Source: Botryllus schlosseri (Eukaryota). Taken from it: a DNA stretch of 64,000 bases. Below the pieces are notes generated by a model, which saw nothing but the letters and a program-made list of their open reading frames with translations, was not told the origin of the DNA and did no database searches. The position numbers and the translations under genes are program-made. The stretch covers positions 7,008,001 through 7,072,000 of the forward strand of contig CM119371.1 in the NCBI GenBank assembly GCA_051294905.1. Direction: 5' to 3'. Shown here piece by piece: positions 20,504 to 33,515 of this stretch. The stretch's first letter is position 1; each line of letters opens with the position of its first letter.

Positions 20504-22132
20504 CTATCTCTTCACAAATACGGATGTGAAAATTTGAAAACATCGATCAACTTTTGGTTTCACCGTAGTCCATTTGTCTTGCGATGTATCATACTTTTCA
20601 ATAGCATTAGAGGTTTCAAGATCTGATACTGCAAAAATCCACTTGTCAATGTGATACGCATAAAGTCGACCATGACAAGCATTCATTGATGATAATGAAG
20701 TCCACTGAGCTGAAGTAACATCGTAACATTCTACGTTGTCGACTTCGGATGCTCGCCCCTCCCCACCAATCACAAATATCTTCTGATTAACTACAACAAC
20801 TCCACTCCCACATACAGGATATCTTATTGGTTCAAGATCAACCCACTCCGATGAGGATGGAGTGAATCTGCAGAATGATGAAACTTCAACGCCATGATGT
20901 CCTTTACCTCCGATACAATAGATGGAATCATTTAATGACACAAGACTTGCTGAACGAATCGCCAAAGGTTTGTCTTCGAGTTGAATCCATCGATTCACAA
21001 GTGAAGTAAATACTTCCACATCACGAGTTGCTTTATTATAACTTCCTCCGACAACAAATATTGATCCCAACAAAAAAACTGAGCGAGGACAGTAGCCATG
21101 ATCACAAATCATATCTTTCATCCTTTCCCATTTTGAATTTCTGCGCTGAAAATTGAGTCGATAAACTGATTTATTCCGACATAAAATGTAGATATACGAG
21201 TCTAGAGAAATCGCCGAGAAATCTGTTAAATTTCCAAAATTCTCATCATGAAACTTCTCAACTTTCTCAGTTACTGGATTGAAGGATTTGATACAATCTG
21301 CGTCATCATCAAAAAGAATTATCAATTCATCTTCGTGAATTTCTTCGTTTGTTTTCTGTGATGCTTTTGAAACTTTCAAAAGATGTCCAGTGATCAACTT
21401 GTACAGTCCCAAGTTGTTACTGATGATTAGGTTTGATTCCAAAAGACGCTCTAAAAATGCTGGAGAGACTTTATCAAACTTGACAGGTTCCAGAAATTCG
21501 TGCAAGTAATCTTGATTTTTTCCATTTTTCTCAACCCAATTGAACAATAACGTTAGTTTTTCTTCTTCGCATAAGTTTGATTCGTCTAACATCACAAATT
21601 TGAGGATGTTAGTTTTTTCAATATTTCCAAATTCAGGTTGGTTTGATATCTCTATGATATTTTCATGAAAAAAAGCTCTACATCGCTTAGAGACGGCATC
21701 CAGTCCATACATATCGGCGACATTTCTTGAGGAAAAGTAATTCTCTACATTAACTGATTCCTCCAAAAAGTCAGATACTGACTGTTTTATGTCATCCAAC
21801 TGCATCATGATTGCAACATGAAGAAGATCATTCATCTTTTCATCAGGAATCTCAAATTTTCCCGAATATATGAAATCGATGCAGTTTTTCACACACTGAG
21901 AATCGACCTCTTTCAAAACAACTTTTCCTTCACGACTCTCTTTGGTGTCATGTTTCAACATAGCTTTGAAATAAGCACAACCAGCCGACAATACATTTTT
22001 ATGAGTGTAATAGACATCATTTCCTACTTGAATTATGAAATCACAATGATCGTTTTCTAGCTTCATTCGATGTAATTCTTCCATCATCTTCACTGAATGT
22101 TTCTCTACATTTCGACACACAATCTGCACCAT
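20504..22132 (-). CDS. BTB-BACK-Kelch (KLHL-like) protein, copy 2, 542 aa, intronless CDS
   Basis: First ATG at 22132 (the ORF track starts at an upstream TTG). BTB motifs HCDF, HKNVLSA, YFKAML and IDFIYSG, then a BACK region and six kelch-like blades (IFVVGG, IYCIGG, IFVIGG, VECYD...W). Confidence 0.95.
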   Translation of the reverse strand: MVQIVCRNVEKHSVKMMEELHRMKLENDHCDFIIQVGNDVYYTHKNVLSAGCAYFKAMLKHDTKESREGKVVLKEVDSQCVKNCIDFIYSGKFEIPDEKMNDLLHVAIMMQLDDIKQSVSDFLEESVNVENYFSSRNVADMYGLDAVSKRCRAFFHENIIEISNQPEFGNIEKTNILKFVMLDESNLCEEEKLTLLFNWVEKNGKNQDYLHEFLEPVKFDKVSPAFLERLLESNLIISNNLGLYKLITGHLLKVSKASQKTNEEIHEDELIILFDDDADCIKSFNPVTEKVEKFHDENFGNLTDFSAISLDSYIYILCRNKSVYRLNFQRRNSKWERMKDMICDHGYCPRSVFLLGSIFVVGGSYNKATRDVEVFTSLVNRWIQLEDKPLAIRSASLVSLNDSIYCIGGKGHHGVEVSSFCRFTPSSSEWVDLEPIRYPVCGSGVVVVNQKIFVIGGEGRASEVDNVECYDVTSAQWTSLSSMNACHGRLYAYHIDKWIFAVSDLETSNAIEKYDTSQDKWTTVKPKVDRCFQIFTSVFVKR

Positions 22133-22624
22133 GATTGTCAATCAACTATAATTATCCTACAATTATTATAATATACCGGTAGTCAAGCAGAAGCACTGTT
22201 ATTGAATTAAAGATGATTAGTTTTTAGTTACCGTAACTCTAGTAATGCCTGTTGAAAGAATCATAATCCGTATATCAACGTCACGAGTATGAATTGAAGG
22301 AAATTCAACTGCACACAAAAGTGATCACTGAACAGTGCGAAATCAGAGGCATCCTTGCCATAATGCAGTTATGAAAACTTCTTCCATCGATTTGCCTTAC
22401 TTTCCATTCGTTGTATTGACACGAAGGCGAAACCTATGAGTTAATGCGGTCGATTACCACCACCTCGCGTATGATCAGGTTGATTATCCGTAATTTAAAT
22501 TGTATTTTGGAACATCGTAAAATAATTTTATATTATGGTATATTCTAGGGACGGCCACATCTGTTCCATGCTCCATCCGAATATCACAAAGATTTGTTTT
22601 GAAAGAGCAGCAACACGAAAGCCC

Positions 22625-24552: not shown

Positions 24553-27500
24553 CTTTGAAAATATATGCATGCACGTTGACGCACGAGATATTCGGTGCAG
24601 TTGTTAAGACTCTTAAACGTGTGGCAGATATATCAAAAAACTATTTTCTACATGAGGTAGTTGGCCTAAACAACAGTTCAACTAGTAATTGAAGTACAAT
24701 TTTAAAATGTCACCACTAGGGTATGTAGTTCAAATAAGCAAAACATACTCAACTGCTGGGAACATTGAGCTGTAGAAACAGCTAGATACAATCTTCAGCA
24801 ATAAATTCGGTTACGAAAACATGCTATTTTACGCACTCCTAATGATAATTTCACTTCTAAAAATGACGCAAGTTTTCCCAAAACTATTTTTTACTTTCCC
24901 AAACCCAAAGTGCGAAAACTAATTTAACGAGATGCCGATAGTCGTCTCATATAAACATAGGCCTAATTGAAATAGTTGGTTTTGAGTATGAGTAAAAATC
25001 AGGAATCTTGATGATGGATAGCGAAAAATTGACACTTTTTTTATTCGGCGCACCCAAATTCATCAAAAACAACAAGAAATAACAAGATAAACAAAGATTT
25101 CATCCGATTTTATTTCATACATAATTATCATTTTTAATCCACGACTCTCATAAAATAAGATCGACATATAAACTTGTAACTTATAACCCAAACTCATATT
25201 GTTGTGAGTATTCCCTTTTGAAGAGTGAATAGCTTGAGCAAATATGTATGCGGCTGAACAAGGAAGAGATAATACACACTGATTTGACTTTTTTCATATT
25301 GAATCATTGAGTGCTGCTGGTGTTTTCATACTGAATTATGGGAAGTGTAAAACTTATACTGCCGACAGTAATCAGAACGTTCCCAACTATTGATATTGGC
25401 CATGTAACCCTTGTGCAATGAATTTTCCAAGTCATCGAAATCATCGATCATATTTATATTGAGTAAGGAAATACAGTAAATATATGATGGGCTGTATCAA
25501 CTAAAATTGCCGGCAGATTTATACACTTTCGTGTTTCTCCACAAAATTTCTGGTTACTATTGCTATGACATTCATCAAATGGTACAAATCGATCACATGC
25601 CAAAATTTGAAAAACTGGACCTACAAAGTTTTGCCGCTTTGAAACAAAAAATACACAATCTTCAAGGCAATTATGATGGATTGAAAATGAAATGAATTGA
25701 AAATTGTAATTATTTTCATTCATGTCTCAGCTGCAGATTTGTACAAACTACTAATCCAGTTGGTTCATGGTAAAGAGTAGTTCATGATGCAAATTTTTGA
25801 AGCGAGTAGTTTAGCGTGAATAGTGAAACTGGTGTTCTGTTGTGTGACGTTCTTGCAGCTATTGCTAGCTCGGAGTCAACGCTACCAACAATGGCGTGGC
25901 CAGGAAATGGGTTTTGAGGGTCGAAAACCGTCCATTTCAAACTCAAAACCCCGTTCTTTTGAAAGGCAGATTATATTTCCAACTCAGTAATTCACATTAT
26001 AAATACTGCAGTTGCTTCAGAACTGAAAATCCAGTAATTTGTACAAATCTGCTCAGGTGAGTGCAATCTATCTCTTCACAAATACAGATCTGTAAATCAC
26101 AAAACATTCATCTACTTTTGGTGTCACTATAGTCCATTTGTCTTGTGTTATATCATACTTTTCAATTTTATTAGCGGTTTTTCCTTCTGATACTGCAAAA
26201 ATCCACTTGTCATGTTGATAAGCAGAAACTCGATCATGACGAGCATTCATAGATAAAAATGAAGTCCATTGAGCTGAAGTAACATCGTAGCATTCAACGT
26301 TGTTGACTTGAAATCCTCCACTCCATCCACCGATCACAAATATCTTGTGATCAACTGCAACAACACCACTGTCAGTCACAGGATATCTCATTGGGTCGAG
26401 ATCAACCCACTCTGATGAGGATGGAGTGAATCTGCAGAATGATGAAACTATGACATCATCTTGTCCTACACCTCCGATACAATAGATGGAATCGTTCAAT
26501 GATACGAGACTTGTATTACAAATCGCTGTAGGTTTGTCTTCTAGTTGAATCCATTGATTCACAAGGGAAGTAAATATTTCCACGTCACTTGTTGCTTTAG
26601 GATAACTTCCGCCCACGACAAATATCGATCCCGATAAAGAAACTGCACGAGGATAGTTTCCATGATCACAAATCATATCTTTCATCTTTTCCCACGTTGA
26701 TTTTTCGCTCTGAAAATTGAGTCGGTAAACTGATTTTGTCACACATAAAACGTAGATATACGAGTCTAGAGAAATCGCAGAGAAAAGTGGTAAATTCTTA
26801 AACTTCTCATCATGGAACTTGTCTACTTTTTCAGTTATTGGATTGAAGGATCGGATACAACTGCGTCACGATCAAAAAGAATTATCAATTCATCTTTACC
26901 AATTTCTTTGTTTCTTTTTTGTGATGCTTTTAAAAGATGTCCATTGATCAACTTGTACAGTCCTAAGTTGTTACTGATAATTAGGTTCGATTCCAAAAGA
27001 CGTTCCAAAAATGCCGGAGAGACTTTATCAAACTTGATTGCTTCGAGACATTCGTCCAAATGTTCCTGATTTCTGCAATTTTTCTCCACCCAATCGAACA
27101 ATAAAATTAGTTTTTCTTCTTCACATAACTTTGATTTTTCCGACATCACAAATTTGAGGAGGTTAGTTTTTTCAATGTTTCCAAATTCTGGTTGGTTTGA
27201 CATTTTTATGATATTTTCAATAAAAAACGCTTCACATCGCGTAGAGAGGGCATCCAGTCCATAAATATCGGCAACATTTCTTGTGGAAAAGTAGTTCTCT
27301 ACATCAACTGATTCCGCCAAAACGTCAGATACTGCCTGCTTCACATCTTCCAGCTGCATCATGACTGCGACATGTAGAAGATCATTCATCTTTTCATCAG
27401 GAATCTGGGCATCCCTAAAAGACGGAGAAGCGGAGGCAGCGGAGACAGCGGAGGCAGCGGAGAACGGACCCTAAAACGCGGAGACAGCGGAGACAGCGGA

Positions 27501-27616
27501 GAGAGCCAAAATGCCGATTCCTAAAACACGGAGATAGCGGAGGAAGCGGAGAGCGGAGCTTTCAGTCATTGACCTTTATAGACACGCGCATACGCAACTC
27601 TAAAAGGTGTAGACGG

Positions 27617-28813
27617 CGGAGAATAACGGAGAAGTCAGCCATGCGAGTTTCAGGCCAATTTGGTGACTGATTGCCCATCGATGAGACGACATAGCGGACG
27701 GTTATATAATATACTGAAAGCGGAGTTCGGGGCGTAGCGAAATATATTTCGAAACAGCAGAGAATAACGGAGAATTCAGCCATGCGAGTTTCAGGCCAAT
27801 TTGGTGACTGATTGCCTATCGATGAGACGACATAGCGGACGGTTATATAATATACTGAAAGCGGAGTTCGGGGCGTAGCGAAATATATTTCGAAACAGCA
27901 GAGAATAACGGAGAATTCGGCCATGCGAGTTTCAGGCCCATTTGGTGACTGATGGCCCATCGATGAGACGACATAGCGGACGGTTAACTGAAAGCGGAGT
28001 TCGGGGCGTAGCGAAATATATTTCGAAACAGCAGAGAATAACGGAGAATTCAGCCATGCGAGTTTCAGGCCAATTAGGTGACTGATTGCCCATCGATGAG
28101 ACGACATAGCGGACGGTTATATAATATACTGAAAGCGGAGTTCGGGGCGTAGCGAAATATCTATCGAAACAGCAGAGAATAACGGAGAATTCAGCCATGC
28201 GAGTTTCAGGCCAATTTGGTGACTGATTGCCCATCGATGAGATGACATTGCGGACGGTTAACTGAAAGCGGAGTTCGGGGCGTAGCGAAATATATTTCGT
28301 AACAGCAGAGAATAACGGAGAATTCAGCCATGCGAGTTTCAGGCCAATTTGGTGACTGATTGCCCATCGATGAGATGACATAGCCGACGGTTATATTGCC
28401 ATAATATATTGAAAGCGGAGTTCGGGGCGTAGCGATATATATTTCGAAACAGCAGAGAATAACGGAGAAGTCAGCCATACGAGTTTCAGGCCAATTTGGT
28501 GACTGATTGCCCATCGATGAGATGACATTGCGGACGGTTATAATATACTGAAAGCGGAGTTCGGGGAGTAGCGAAATATATTTCGAAACAGCAGAGAATA
28601 ACGGAGAATTCAGCCATGCGAGTTTCAGGCCAATTTGGTGACTGATTGCCCATCGATGAGACGACATAGCGGACGGTTATATAATATACTGAAAGCGGAG
28701 TTCGGGGCGTAGCGAAATATCTATCGAAACAGCAGAGAATAACGGAGAATTCAGCCATGCGAGTTTCAGGCCAATTTGGTGACTGATTGCCCATCAATGA
28801 GATGACATTGCGG
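27617..28813. repeat. Left arm array, about nine 133-147-bp units
   Basis: Repeated unit GCAGAGAATAACGGAGAATTCAGCCATGCGAGTTTCAGGCCAATTTGGTGACTGATTGCCCATCGATGAG... Confidence 0.95.
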
Positions 28814-29971
28814 CCGCGTTTCGTATGACAATTTAACTGATGATAGTTGTGGAATATTATACTGAACTACTTTCTACTTTACAAAAACCTAATTGCAAAT
28901 GTAATTAGTTCATCCAGAATACTGTTCAGGTTGAAGTGATTGCGAAACATTACCACTTCAATAAGTACCGGAAATAGCCCAAATCTACTTGATTACCTCG
29001 AAAAAGTAGAAATATTCAACATATATAATATCTGAACAACTTGATGTGATAAAGCAAAAATAATAGGGATGGTGTGAACCTCTGAAAGGTTCGGGTTCGT
29101 GTGAACGCGAACCATTTTGAAAGGTTCTGTGTGAACACGAACGTGAACCTCGTGACGTCATATTGCTAATTCCAACCGTATCTTTCCTATATTAATGTAC
29201 ACGATACCTAGCGAAGACTCGGGCCACATAATGTCACATAATTGCTGAAGTACATATTGGCGTTTTAAACGTCGCTAAATGTATTAACCGCGGTTATCAA
29301 AGGATATAATAATCTCATAAAATCAATACATTCCGTCGCTTTGCCAACAATTTCGACGAGGACTTACACTAAGGGTGGAGATCATAGACGTAACTTAAGT
29401 TCCGGTTGCCAAGTAACACATGCTTGAGTGATGAGCATTACTCAATTGAGGATCATAAAGTATCCTCAGCCATAAAATGAGTTTTTAACGAGACTCAAAA
29501 CGTCCGAAACTTAAGGTACGTGTAGTGCTAACTTAAGTACGCGACATGTTACTTCGAGAGCTCCGGCGTTACAGTTGGTCGGTCATCCGAGGCCCTATTT
29601 CTCGTCACGCAGCAACGGCGTCAGCATAGTTATACCACAATGACCTACAGTAATGCATAACAATGACCAAGGAGTTGCAGCGGACGACTGAAAACATAAG
29701 CAAACGGCTTCTGAAGTAATGTGCTGGGGATTACTCTGCATCGCAATAGTCATACCGCAATGGTCTAGATTAATGCATAGCAATGGCTTGAAGCTACTGC
29801 GGATGACTGGAAATATAAACAACCAGGTGCTGAAGTGATGTGCCATGGTCAGGCTCGAAATCAATGACTATTGTACGCTATTTAACGTACTGTCATTGTA
29901 ATTTATAACGGGCTAAATTGCTATCAACTATCAAATACAGAATTAGAAGCGATAATCTAACAATTGTAATA

Positions 29972-30644
29972 ATGGCTGATGTTCCAGCAAAGAGGGAGCC
30001 CAATTTCTCTATTCAAGAAAAAAAGTTGTTGTTGGATTTAGTGGCAGAAAATCCCGTTATTGAAAATAAAAAAACAGACAAATATTCCACCAACGCGAAA
30101 GATAAAGAGTGGGAGAGTCTCGCGGAGAAGTTTAATTCCAGCGGCCTTGGGACAATTAGGAGCCAAAAATGTCTAAGAAAACGTTGGATGAACATGAAAG
30201 ATAGGGCGAAAAGTGACGAGGCAAGGCTCAAAAGCGAAAAGCGGAAAACGGGGGGTGGGCCGAAGACGTTTATTCCAGACCCTTTGACGGAAGCAGTATG
30301 CTGTGAGTGTAAAAAAATTGAGCAAATAGTTGCCTACAATCATACGCACTGATTTGTAACAAATGTATTTTTCAGCTGTTGTTCCTGGTCAAATCTACCC
30401 TATCGATCATTGCCTTGATCACGATACAATCGATTGTGAAGAGGAATCTTACGTTATCATGCATTCGGAATCGCCGGTGACGAGTCATTCTTCGTCGACT
30501 CCCGTCCATTTCGGACGGAAATCAAAGAGAAGTGGCAGCTTTCATTTCGAAGAAAGCGTGGAACAACCCCCCAAAAAGTCCAAATTTGAAGTTATCCGTG
30601 ACGAATATTTGGCCGAAAAGATAAATGCTATGAAGAAACAATGA
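29972..30644 (+). CDS. Myb/SANT-like DNA-binding domain protein (Harbinger-ORF2/MSANTD-like), 199 aa, 2 exons (29972-30302, 30376-30644)
   Basis: MADVPAKREPNFSIQEKKLLLDLV...IENKKTD...KDKEWESLAEKFNS...RSQKCLRKRWMNMK...RKTGGGP. A 73-bp GTGAGT...TTTTTCAG intron joins the two ORFs in frame. AATAAA near 30949. Confidence 0.8.
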
Positions 30645-31289
30645 TTCAAAAAAGCCCTACTTGATCACCTCTTGTCGTTACACTAACACTGTTGCCCTAC
30701 CTCGCCCAGACATTGCTTCATTGATCATTTGCTACCATTGTTTAATTTTTTTTCTATTTTCCTTTTCTAACTAAACATTTTTTACAGCCAGACTGTTCTG
30801 AGTCAAGTTTACCTGTTTGATGCTGGTGTGATCAGACTAGATGACCTTCATGGTCTTATCGATCATTCCTATCTAATACCGAATACTGTGCACGCATATT
30901 TTCTGTACCACCATCACTGCCGTTTGTTATGTATTTTGGTTCGATGAAAATAAAGACTCTCTCTCTCTCTCTCACCAGGGAATATAAGCTTACGCCTTAA
31001 CGGTCTTAGCCAGACTGGATAATGTGTTCGGAGTCTGAGTATTGCTACATTTATATTGAGCAGAGTGTAAAACGGGTTTCTATACTCGCTACCGATACCA
31101 TAAACAACAAGTCAGCCAGCACCTTAATCGCACGGATTTGGTTTTAATGATACAGTAAAGATATGAAGTCAGGATTGACCCCGTACGCCGCTGAGCAGTT
31201 TCAGGTTTTTAGAAAAATTTTTGAGTGAATTTGAAGTTCTAAGATCGAAAAAATATGTGCCGGTTATATATTGTCGAATACTTCGAAAT

Positions 31290-32680
31290 ACACCAAATTG
31301 GCCAGGAACTCGCATCGTTGACTTTTCCGTTTCTCACCGCTGTTTCGAAACATCTTCCCCTACGCCCCGATCTCCGCTTTCAATATATTATGTAACCGTC
31401 CGATACGTCGTCTCATTGATCGGTTCCATCGTTCGGTTTATTAGCAATTTTCAGTATATTATAACTGTCCGCAATGTCATCTCATCGATGGGCAATCAGT
31501 CACCAAATTGGCCTGAAACTCGCATGGCTGAATTCTCCGTTATTCTCTGCTGTTTCGAAATATATATCGCTACGCCCCGAACTCCGTTTTCAATATATTA
31601 TGGCAATATAACCGTCGGCTATGTCATCTCATCGATGGGCAATCAGTCACCAAATTGGCCTGAAACTCGCATGGCTGAATTCTCCGTTATTCTCTGCTGT
31701 TTCGAAATATATTTCGCTACGCCCCGAACTCCGCTTTCAGTATATTATAACCTTCCGCAATGTCATCTCATTGATGGGCAATCAGTCACCAAATTGGCCT
31801 GAAACTCGCATGGCTGAATTCTCCGTTATTCTCTGCTGTTTCGATAGATATTTCGCTACGCCCCGAACTCCGCTTTCAATATATTATGGCAATATAACCG
31901 TCGGCTATGTCATCTCATCGATGGGCAATCAGTCACCAAATTGGCCTGAAACTCGCATGGCTGAATTCTCCGTTATTCTCTGCTGTTACGAAATATATTT
32001 CGCTACGCCCCGAACTCCGCTTTCAGTATATTATATAACCGTCCGCTATGTCGTCTCATCGATGGGCAATCAGTCACCAAATTGGCCTGAAACTCGCATG
32101 GCTGAATTCTCCGTTATTCTCTGCTGTTTCGAAATACATTTCGCTACGCCCCGAACTCCGCTTTCAGTATATTATTACCGTCCGCTATGTCGTCTCATCG
32201 ATGGGCAATCAGTCACCAAATTGGCCTGAAACTCGCATGGCTGAATTCTCCGTTATTCTCTGCTGTTTCGAAATATATTTCGCTACGCCCCGAACTCCGC
32301 TTTCAGTTAACCGTCCGCTATGTCGTCTCATCGATGGGCCATCAGTCACCAAATGGGCCTGAAACTCGCATGGCCGAATTCTCCGTTATTCTCTGCTGTT
32401 TCGAAATATATTTCGCTACGCCCCGAACTCCGCTTTCAGTATATTATATAACCGTCCGCTATGTCGTCTCATCGATAGGCAATCAGTCACCAAATTGGCC
32501 TGAAACTCGCATGGCTGAATTCTCCGTTATTCTCTGCTGTTTCGAAATATATTTCGCTACGCCCCGAACTCCGCTTTCAGTATATTATATAACCGTCCGC
32601 TATGTCGTCTCATCGATGGGCAATCAGTCACCAAATTGGCCTGAAACTCGCATGGCTGACTTCTCCGTTATTCTCCGCCG
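31290..32680. repeat. Right arm array, nine units plus one degenerate inner unit (inverted relative to the left arm)
   Basis: Reverse complement of the left-arm units. Confidence 0.95.
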
Positions 32681-33515
32681 TCTACACCTTTTAGAGTTGC
32701 GTATGCGCGTGTCTATAAAGGTCAATGACTGAAAGCTCCGCTCTCCGCTTCCTCCGCTATCTCCGTGTTTTAGGAATCGGCATTTTGGCTCTCTCCGCTG
32801 TCTCCGCTGTCTCCGCGTTTTAGGGTCCGTTCTCCGCTGCCTCCGCTGTCTCCGCTGCCTCCGCTTCTCCGTCTTTTAGGGATGCCCCAGGAATCTCCAA
32901 TTTTCCCGAATATATGAAATCGATGCAGTTTTTCACACACCTTGAATCGACCTCTTTCAAAACAACTTTTCCTTCACGACACTCTTTTGTGTCGTGTTTC
33001 AACATAGCTTTAAAATAATCACAACCAGCCGACAATACATTTCTGTGAGTGTAATAAACATCATCTCCCACTTGAATTGTGAAATCACAATGATCGTTCT
33101 CTCGCTTCATTCGATGTAATTCTTCCATCATCTTCACTGAATGTTTCTCTACATTTTGACACACAATCTGCACCATGATTGTCAATCAACTATAATTATC
33201 CTACGATTATTATAATATAGTCAAGCACTGTTATTGAATTAAAGATGATTAGAAAGTAATGCCTGTTGAAAGAATCATAATACGTACCGGTACATCAACG
33301 TCATGAGTATGAATTGAAGGAACTTCACTTCAACTACACATAGGGTGATCACTGAACAGTGCTAAATCAGAGGCGTCCCTCTCATAATGTTATGAAAACT
33401 TCTTTATATTTTATACTGTGGTATATTCCAGGGGCGACCGCACCTATTTCATGCTCCAACCTAATACCACAAAGATTGGTTTTAACAGAGCAGCATCACG
33501 AATGATCACGGCATC

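Follow-up and report, generated by a model that had tools for sequence, protein, structure and literature searches.

Does a foldback transposon of the Mutator (MULE) type in an animal carry, and spread, a gene for a DNA-binding protein? The question is raised by a 64,000-nt stretch of Botryllus schlosseri DNA (contig CM119371.1 of assembly GCA_051294905.1, forward-strand positions 7,008,001 to 7,072,000; hereafter the window), in which a 5,481-bp foldback element at 27407–32887 holds an open reading frame (ORF) for a Myb/SANT-like protein. A preliminary description, made from the letters alone, had taken the element for a Pack-MULE-like or cross-superfamily chimera that mobilizes an intact Myb/SANT gene, the product of which might bind the element's own arms. 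The comparisons reported here give a different answer: the element is very probably a non-autonomous, internally deleted foldback of the MULE type, and its Myb ORF lies within a patch unique to this copy, as the by-product of a truncated Harbinger transposon. The whole is ordinary nested mobile DNA in three layers, namely foldback, Harbinger fragment and repeat.

The foldback element and the patch in its interior

The outer arms of the element (27407–28126 and 32168–32887) form a 720-nt inverted repeat that is 99% identical, with 4 mismatches in 720 positions, and a perfect 9-bp target-site duplication (TSD), CAGGAATCT, stands on either side of it. The 21-nt terminus occurs at exactly two sites in the window, 27407 (+) and 32887 (−), where shuffling gives an expectation of 0. 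Each arm is about 1.4 kb long and modular, with 9-bp repeats of the CGGAG type at its tip followed by tandem 141-bp units, of which there are 8.6 copies at 27619–28813 and 8.7 copies at 31449–32675. Long terminal inverted repeats (TIRs) are a feature of the Mutator superfamily, and tandem subrepeats, together with lengths that differ among copies (1,035 to about 15,000 bp, mostly arm), are the feature of foldback-type arms; both are present here. None of the ORFs of the window copy (27407–32887) resembles a transposase. The 5,481-bp element is a young copy, without a transposase, of a Mutator-type foldback, and in its extent, its modular arms, its TSD and its lack of a transposase the preliminary description was confirmed.

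Within the foldback interior, the window copy carries an insertion of 1,608 bp (29368–30975). The family comparison covered 35 other paired copies (40 loci, about 1.0 to 15 kb) in addition to the window copy, and in four of these loci the corresponding empty site is contiguous and reads CTTAC/CAGGG: L034, which is 98–99.5% identical to the window on either side, and L038, L042 and L043. Against these four empty sites, the joints of the patch are clean to the base. The patch is made up, from left to right, of 5 nt from the donor's flank, the left TIR of a Harbinger element with its Myb gene as far as codon 199, and a retroposon-like repeat (Table 1). The interior to the left of the patch is shared with other copies, with 28781–29063 matching 25 of the 40 family loci at 88–95% (L029 at 98%) and 29064–29367 being common mainly to L029 and L034 (98%). 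In a BLAST search with the window interior, 29381–30980 had zero coverage in the 40 family loci, which represent 35 elements. The junction between Harbinger sequence and repeat at 30641/30643 is unique in the assembly, and no donor with a second such junction was found among the scored matches, which were 40 of 2078 and 40 of 1129 candidates.

The predicted spliced ORF encodes 199 amino acids (aa) with no internal stop, and the unspliced reading stops at codon 127. Harbinger homology ends at 30641 and the repeat begins at 30643; where the two meet, the stop codon is created and the protein loses 39 C-terminal residues, by which it extends further in L009 and L012. The gene had been called intact, and its 199-aa frame is indeed open and matches a Myb/SANT profile as had been expected of it, but its last 39 residues are lost and its stop is supplied by the repeat. 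In a genome-wide search, the exon-1 protein has a 100% match only at the window, and the next loci, at 94–95%, lie outside foldback copies. The most fitting description of the ORF is that of a truncated by-product in which the DNA-binding domain is kept and the C-terminal tail lost; judged from these sequence comparisons, it is not a gene or cargo of the foldback family.

The source of this part of the patch can be followed in the assembly. Window positions 29369–30641 are 93–95% identical to L009, L010, L014 and L011, all outside foldback copies, and the homologous sequence forms one end of ~3-kb units (2249–5252 in L009; 3536–6557 in L012) that are bounded by the TIRs GGGTGGAGATCATA and by 3-bp TSDs (TTA in L009, TAA in L012 and TAC in L011). 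Units of the L009/L012 type contain the Myb ORF and a convergent DDE_Tnp_4 transposase ORF (E=3.6e-33 and 9.2e-34); in L012 (PF13359, E=3.6e-33; PF13873, E=8.2e-17), the Myb ORF adjoins the transposase, as is characteristic of PIF/Harbinger. By these ends and domains the ~3-kb units are assigned to PIF/Harbinger, and the earlier suggestion that the ORF is of the PIF/Harbinger accessory kind is borne out by its closest genomic relatives, which lie inside units bearing DDE_Tnp_4. A contig of 1533 nt from run X1 matches 29369–30641 with 4 mismatches and a 13-bp insertion and continues into other sequence at both ends, which indicates that a near-identical Harbinger copy exists outside the assembly. 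A second Harbinger subfamily, represented by L012 (3536–6557) and L013 (2048–4926), shows 70–88% identity with the window fragment in the segments that align; the L012 and L013 copies are 97% identical to each other, with an open 346-aa DDE_Tnp_4 ORF, and this subfamily may be autonomous.

The repeat that closes the patch belongs to a family with 2078 candidate copies, and the 39 other loci that were scored are 98–100% identical; to judge from these copies, the family is very young. In six of six sampled copies (L055–L060) the repeat tail is followed by unrelated 3′ flanks, and in five of the six the shared 5′ sequence extends at least 100 bp further, so the window copy is 5′-truncated relative to these. 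L060 is truncated at precisely the 5′ base where the window copy is. An interspersed repeat of ~680 bp (L061:1475–2151; 1478 candidates, scored copies 85–93%) adjoins another copy of the 331-bp repeat family.

Table 1. Features of the foldback element, its patch and the interrupted gene, in window coordinates
Feature	Position	Strand	Basis or remark
Host gene, Kelch-repeat part, in a different frame	26071..26865	−	
Host gene continued: BTB positions 79–108, then BACK domain	26838..27404	−	profile match
Left TSD copy, CAGGAATCT	27398..27406		direct repeat flanking the element
Left foldback arm: terminus GGGCATCCCTAAAAGACGGAG, CGGAG-type repeats (27423–27506), 141-bp units	27407..28816	+	
Foldback interior, left part	28817..29367		comparison with family loci
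ACTAA, 5 nt that the foldback empty site lacks	29368..29372	+	TAA is the donor's 3-bp Harbinger-type TSD
PIF/Harbinger left-end fragment: TIR (29373–29386), 5′ region, Myb gene to codon 199	29373..30641	+	
Myb/SANT ORF, exon 1	29972..30302	+	Myb_DNA-bind_5, PF13873, E=9.6e-17
Predicted intron, 73 nt, GTGAGT...TTTCAG	30303..30375	+	prediction from sequence
Myb/SANT ORF, exon 2	30376..30644	+	TGA stop (30642–30644) spans the repeat junction
3′ part of a high-copy retroposon-like repeat, 331 bp	30643..30973	+	AATAAA at 30949–30954, (TC)n tail at 30957–30973
AC at the right junction	30974..30975		2-bp duplication or microhomology with AC at 29366–29367
Foldback interior, right part	30976..31301		abuts 29367 in L034 (99.5%) and in autonomous L038, L042 and L043
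Right foldback arm: degenerate inner unit, 141-bp units (31449–32675), 9-bp tip repeats, terminus	31302..32887	−	
Right TSD copy, CAGGAATCT	32888..32896		direct repeat flanking the element
Host gene, N-terminal part: Pfam BTB positions 3–78	32889..33185	−	profile match

The foldback family and its autonomous copies

A search of the 495.5-Mb genome for the terminus, with up to two mismatches allowed, gave 109 forward and 88 reverse matches, whereas the reversed control gave 0 and 0; from these 197 termini, the family is estimated at about 100 copies. Perfect 9-bp TSDs, all different in sequence, flank 30 of the 36 copies compared (26 of the 30 single-locus copies, three of the five split copies and the window copy), and a duplication of ~9 bp (8–11) is a feature of the Mutator superfamily. 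An autonomous partner was looked for and found: three copies of 11–15 kb (L037/38, L041/42 and L043/44) encode a 1018-aa ORF (in L037, L041 and L044) with a Peptidase_C48/Ulp1 domain (Pfam, E=5.7e-16), and interior sequence is common to these copies and the window copy. The three ORFs, at three separate sites, show 0 aa differences and 0–3 nt differences over 3054 nt, a near-identity that points to very recent transposition. The foldback family is apparently active now, or was so very recently.

The 1018-aa protein has seven homologues in the database, the closest of which is an uncharacterised protein of Ciona intestinalis with 42% identity. The MULE domain is matched at E<1e-4 in six of the seven and above the Pfam cut-off in three, with Transposase_mut also matched in one; the Ulp1 domain is present in four, and a PHD finger in two (P0004, 28.9 bits; P0005, 25.4 bits; both above cut-off). 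The placement in the Mutator superfamily is supported by sequence and leans on these homologues and on the TSD. With that qualification, the MULE-type link drawn in the preliminary description stands, the autonomous copies encoding a putative MULE-domain transposase.

Some of the other copies carry inserts of their own. The insert at L028:4294–5457 has a reverse-transcriptase-like ORF (RVT_1, E=1.9e-4, below cut-off), those at L027:2289–3152 and L030:2446–3306 each contain an ORF (288 and 287 aa, respectively) for which Pfam gave no match, and another foldback copy has an insert at L020:2901–4304. Nested or captured DNA seems to be common in this family.

Origin of the patch and competing readings

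If the Myb ORF is the by-product of a truncated Harbinger copy, the patch would have arisen from a break in the foldback interior that was then filled, in one or two steps. By one route, a retroposon-primed insertion would have begun the repair, and the nascent strand would have switched template to a Harbinger copy; by the other, the gap would have been filled by copying a donor locus no longer to be found in the assembly. On both routes, the last joint would have been made through the 2-bp microhomology AC. The right boundary falls exactly at the tail of a 5′-truncated retroposon-like repeat, which points to target-primed insertion, and the retained intron and 5 nt of donor flank suggest a DNA template for the Harbinger part. 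Once patched, the element would be moved in trans by the 1018-aa protein, by cut and paste.

Several observations weigh against this account or against parts of it. The 1018-aa ORF itself falls short of the curated Pfam cut-offs, with 24.0 bits against 27.6 for MULE (PF10551, E=5.4e-5) and 20.2 bits against 24 for PHD (PF00628, residues 968–1006, E=6e-4); mobilization of the window copy by this protein is a step that we infer. Six of the 36 copies have no perfect 9-bp duplication: L015, L024 and L037/38 resemble 8-bp duplications shifted by one base, and L023, L053 and L039/40 have unmatched flanks. The retroposon-primed step is made uncertain by the intron and the donor flank, which are more readily explained by a template of DNA than by one of RNA. 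As to the class of the 331-bp repeat, the 2.3 kb upstream of one copy, part of which is itself a repeat of ~680 bp, contain no ORF longer than 152 aa, and a comparison with Rfam gave 0 matches at E≤0.1. The Myb ORF is open, its promoter region is plausible and an AATAAA lies downstream of it, so that it may have a function. Finally, the family copies read for the Myb segment are 35 of about 100; for the others, its absence is drawn from the genome-wide protein search and from 100 of the 197 termini, a list that is complete for the contigs holding close Myb paralogues.

The alternatives are taken in descending order of probability. The first starts from the same structure, and would have a single retroposon-primed repair create a three-superfamily chimera within a mobilizable foldback, so that the Myb ORF could be spread by the active MULE family and its product could serve at Harbinger ends as a decoy or as a repressor. 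On this reading, if true, the truncated protein would bind DNA without the tail that interacts with its partner. We regard this outcome as improbable.

The second is ordinary nested transposition, in which a non-autonomous Harbinger derivative entered the foldback by means of the Harbinger transposase. A TAA followed by the left TIR is present at 29370–29386, and the genome holds apparently complete copies with open DDE_Tnp_4 ORFs, but the fragment has only one of the two ends that such a jump would leave. Two TIRs and a 3-bp TWA are found in the full genomic copies; in the window, a TIR search with up to two mismatches gave one match, the left TIR, and the right junction lacks a TWA. In CTTAC/CAGGG, the empty site, no TWA is duplicated either, an extra AC precedes the TAA, and what stands at the right end is an unrelated repeat's tail. 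A simple Harbinger jump is, on this evidence, distinctly improbable.

The third is the Pack-MULE-like reading, in which the foldback family has captured a DNA-binding gene and spreads it, the protein acting on the family's own arms. The ORF is open over 199 aa and its Myb/SANT match is strong; the carrier, its termini intact and its autonomous partner active, could still move; and the Ssk-FB4 family in Drosophila offers an animal precedent, as described in PMC8277862. Against this, the segment is present in 0 of the 35 other copies and its 100% match is unique in the genome, so the multicopy state expected of such cargo is lacking. The captured DNA is moreover itself transposon (a Harbinger TIR plus a repeat), whereas Pack-TIRs, as defined in the relevant part of PMC8277862, hold non-TE (transposable element) sequence, and the ORF is truncated by the repeat. 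We consider this reading very unlikely. A chimera in the literal sense is what was found, but not a cargo mobilized by the family; the segment is a one-off, a nested fragment truncated and with one end only, which is the outcome that the preliminary description had itself named as refuting it. The proposed binding of the Myb protein to the foldback arms finds no support, since the targets to be expected of it by analogy with Harbinger systems are Harbinger subterminal sequences. The claim of an animal Pack-MULE with a functional DNA-binding gene fails and should not be carried forward.

The RNA evidence bears on the same reading. About 3% of raw RNA run X23 was read, and in that portion there are zero reads on 29418–30597 and many on the repeat, a weak negative. 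The splice joint from 30302 to 30376 is not among the joints listed for runs X1, X4, X7 and X23. Contigs from X1 and X4 (the type of these runs being a guess) span the intron unspliced and either end at 29369/30641 or enter sequence that is not that of the window, which indicates that the contigs covering the gene derive from other Harbinger copies and not from the window copy. One X4 contig begins exactly at 30376; the DNA-like run X7 also has a contig ending at 30376, so the X4 start is uninformative on splicing. Read joints that skip about 1608–1615 bases correspond to the empty-site form of other family copies.

It is fourthly conceivable, though extremely unlikely in our view, that the patch or the entire insertion is an artefact of assembly in which repeats were mis-joined. 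The region is rich in repeats and, among the best-supported contigs listed for four runs, none bridges 29367/29368, 30641/30643 or 30975/30976. A mis-join would not, however, be expected to yield a perfect 9-bp TSD, nor patch junctions that are exact against four empty sites, nor the restoration of an interrupted gene: the element sits within the BTB-coding part of a minus-strand BTB-BACK-Kelch gene, and its removal in silico, with one TSD copy, joins the two BTB parts in a single 286-aa frame (...GKLEIPDEKMND...). Least probable of all, to the point of being negligible, is the duplication into the element of a domesticated, MSANTD-like host gene, for although the genome contains at least 144 matches to the Myb domain, many with open frames, some of which could be host genes, the homologous unit begins exactly at the Harbinger TIR and the nearest relatives (94–95% and 75–77%) lie in units bounded by TIRs and TSDs, with a DDE_Tnp_4 gene beside the Myb gene.

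The interrupted gene and related elements

On the minus strand the element cuts a BTB domain in two, with profile positions 3–78 on one side of it and 79–108 on the other. The interrupted BTB-BACK-Kelch gene has an additional frameshift near 26835–26865, between its BACK and Kelch parts, and this copy would thus be a pseudogene even apart from the insertion. It belongs to a tandem array of ~1 Mb (G000:C1:6.54–7.59 Mb), inside which the window (1–64000) lies and which comprises at least 50 BTB-BACK-Kelch paralogues, each of ~545 aa in a single exon. An intact paralogue is found at window 20504–22141 (−), and over the N-terminal 99 residues of the interrupted copy the array paralogues match it at 86–98% of amino acids; a database search with a BTB-Kelch paralogue matched six proteins, the closest at 53% identity. 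Five foldback copies lie in the 1-Mb array (G000:C1:6558564, 6744827, 6916046, 7035407, which is the window copy, and 7302679), compared with ~0.2 expected for ~98 elements in 495.5 Mb. The other four are loci L015–L018, and the TSDs of all five differ. The window copy and L017 both interrupt BTB coding sequence, each at its own codon. Such a pattern suggests local hopping or target bias.

Among known elements, FB/FB4 of Drosophila are likewise foldback elements linked to the Mutator superfamily, with composite tandem-repeat TIRs. Tm1 of root-knot nematodes is a Mutator/Foldback family for which the portion of PMC3169594 concerned with it gives TSDs of 8–10 bp in 45 of 53 cases, most commonly 9. 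The present family resembles Tm1, as presented there, in its composite TIRs of tandem repeats in variable copy number, in its mostly 9-bp TSDs and in the mixture of short coding-free copies with a few that bear a transposase. It differs in that the unit is 141 bp, with 9-bp tips, rather than ~14 bp; its termini are symmetric, whereas those of Tm1 have asymmetric 7-bp end motifs; and its putative transposase, at 1018 aa against 496 aa, is far larger, with Ulp1 and a putative PHD domain fused to it.

Few MULEs have been reported in chordates, according to the section of PMC6446971 that deals with them. For Rehavkus (Repbase) that section gives a TSD of 9 bp, one transposase ORF that includes a PHD finger, and a minisatellite close to one end. 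The family studied here shares the 9-bp TSD, a single ORF for a putative transposase and repeats near the ends, and its PHD match is below cut-off; the reported TIRs of Rehavkus are 26–400 bp long with one minisatellite before the 3′ TIR, whereas both arms here are about 1.4 kb; the same account names arthropods and annelids as its hosts and makes no mention of Ulp1 in the lines given to it. Hydra and lancelet do have Mutator transposons with a Ulp1 domain, as stated in the relevant passage of PMC2836005, which also presents an alignment of Ginger1 and Mutator transposases over their Ulp1 and PHD domains. In having a C48 domain within a Mutator element, the family is like the Ulp1-bearing Mutators that this passage covers (hydra, lancelet, Arabidopsis KI-MULEs, maize, rice and melon). 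Our literature search found no foldback element with a fused MULE–Ulp1–PHD protein, although the Repbase Reports cited in PMC2836005 may describe such elements.

The patch has its own closest counterparts. The full PIF/Harbinger copies of this genome have short TIRs, a 3-bp TSD, DDE_Tnp_4 and a converging Myb_DNA-bind_5 ORF on the opposite strand; the window, by comparison, keeps only the left 1.27 kb, with no transposase or right TIR and with 39 residues missing from the Myb ORF. The single-copy Pack-TIRs of animals are attributed, in the part of PMC8277862 that treats them, mostly to gap filling independent of transposition, with a median microhomology of 2 bp. The patch is like these in being present once, as filler inside a TIR transposon, with 2-bp microhomology at a breakpoint; it departs from the definition given there in that the filler is derived from transposons and that one end of it is a retroposon-like tail.

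Resolved to the base, this three-layer insertion illustrates how patches of transposon within transposon, with open ORFs in them, can originate. Beyond the Myb ORF, what the locus usefully leaves is an apparently active foldback/MULE family of about 100 copies, with three identical autonomous copies that encode a fused protein with MULE, Ulp1 and PHD matches, a family that clusters locally in the BTB-Kelch array and there knocks out members of the array.

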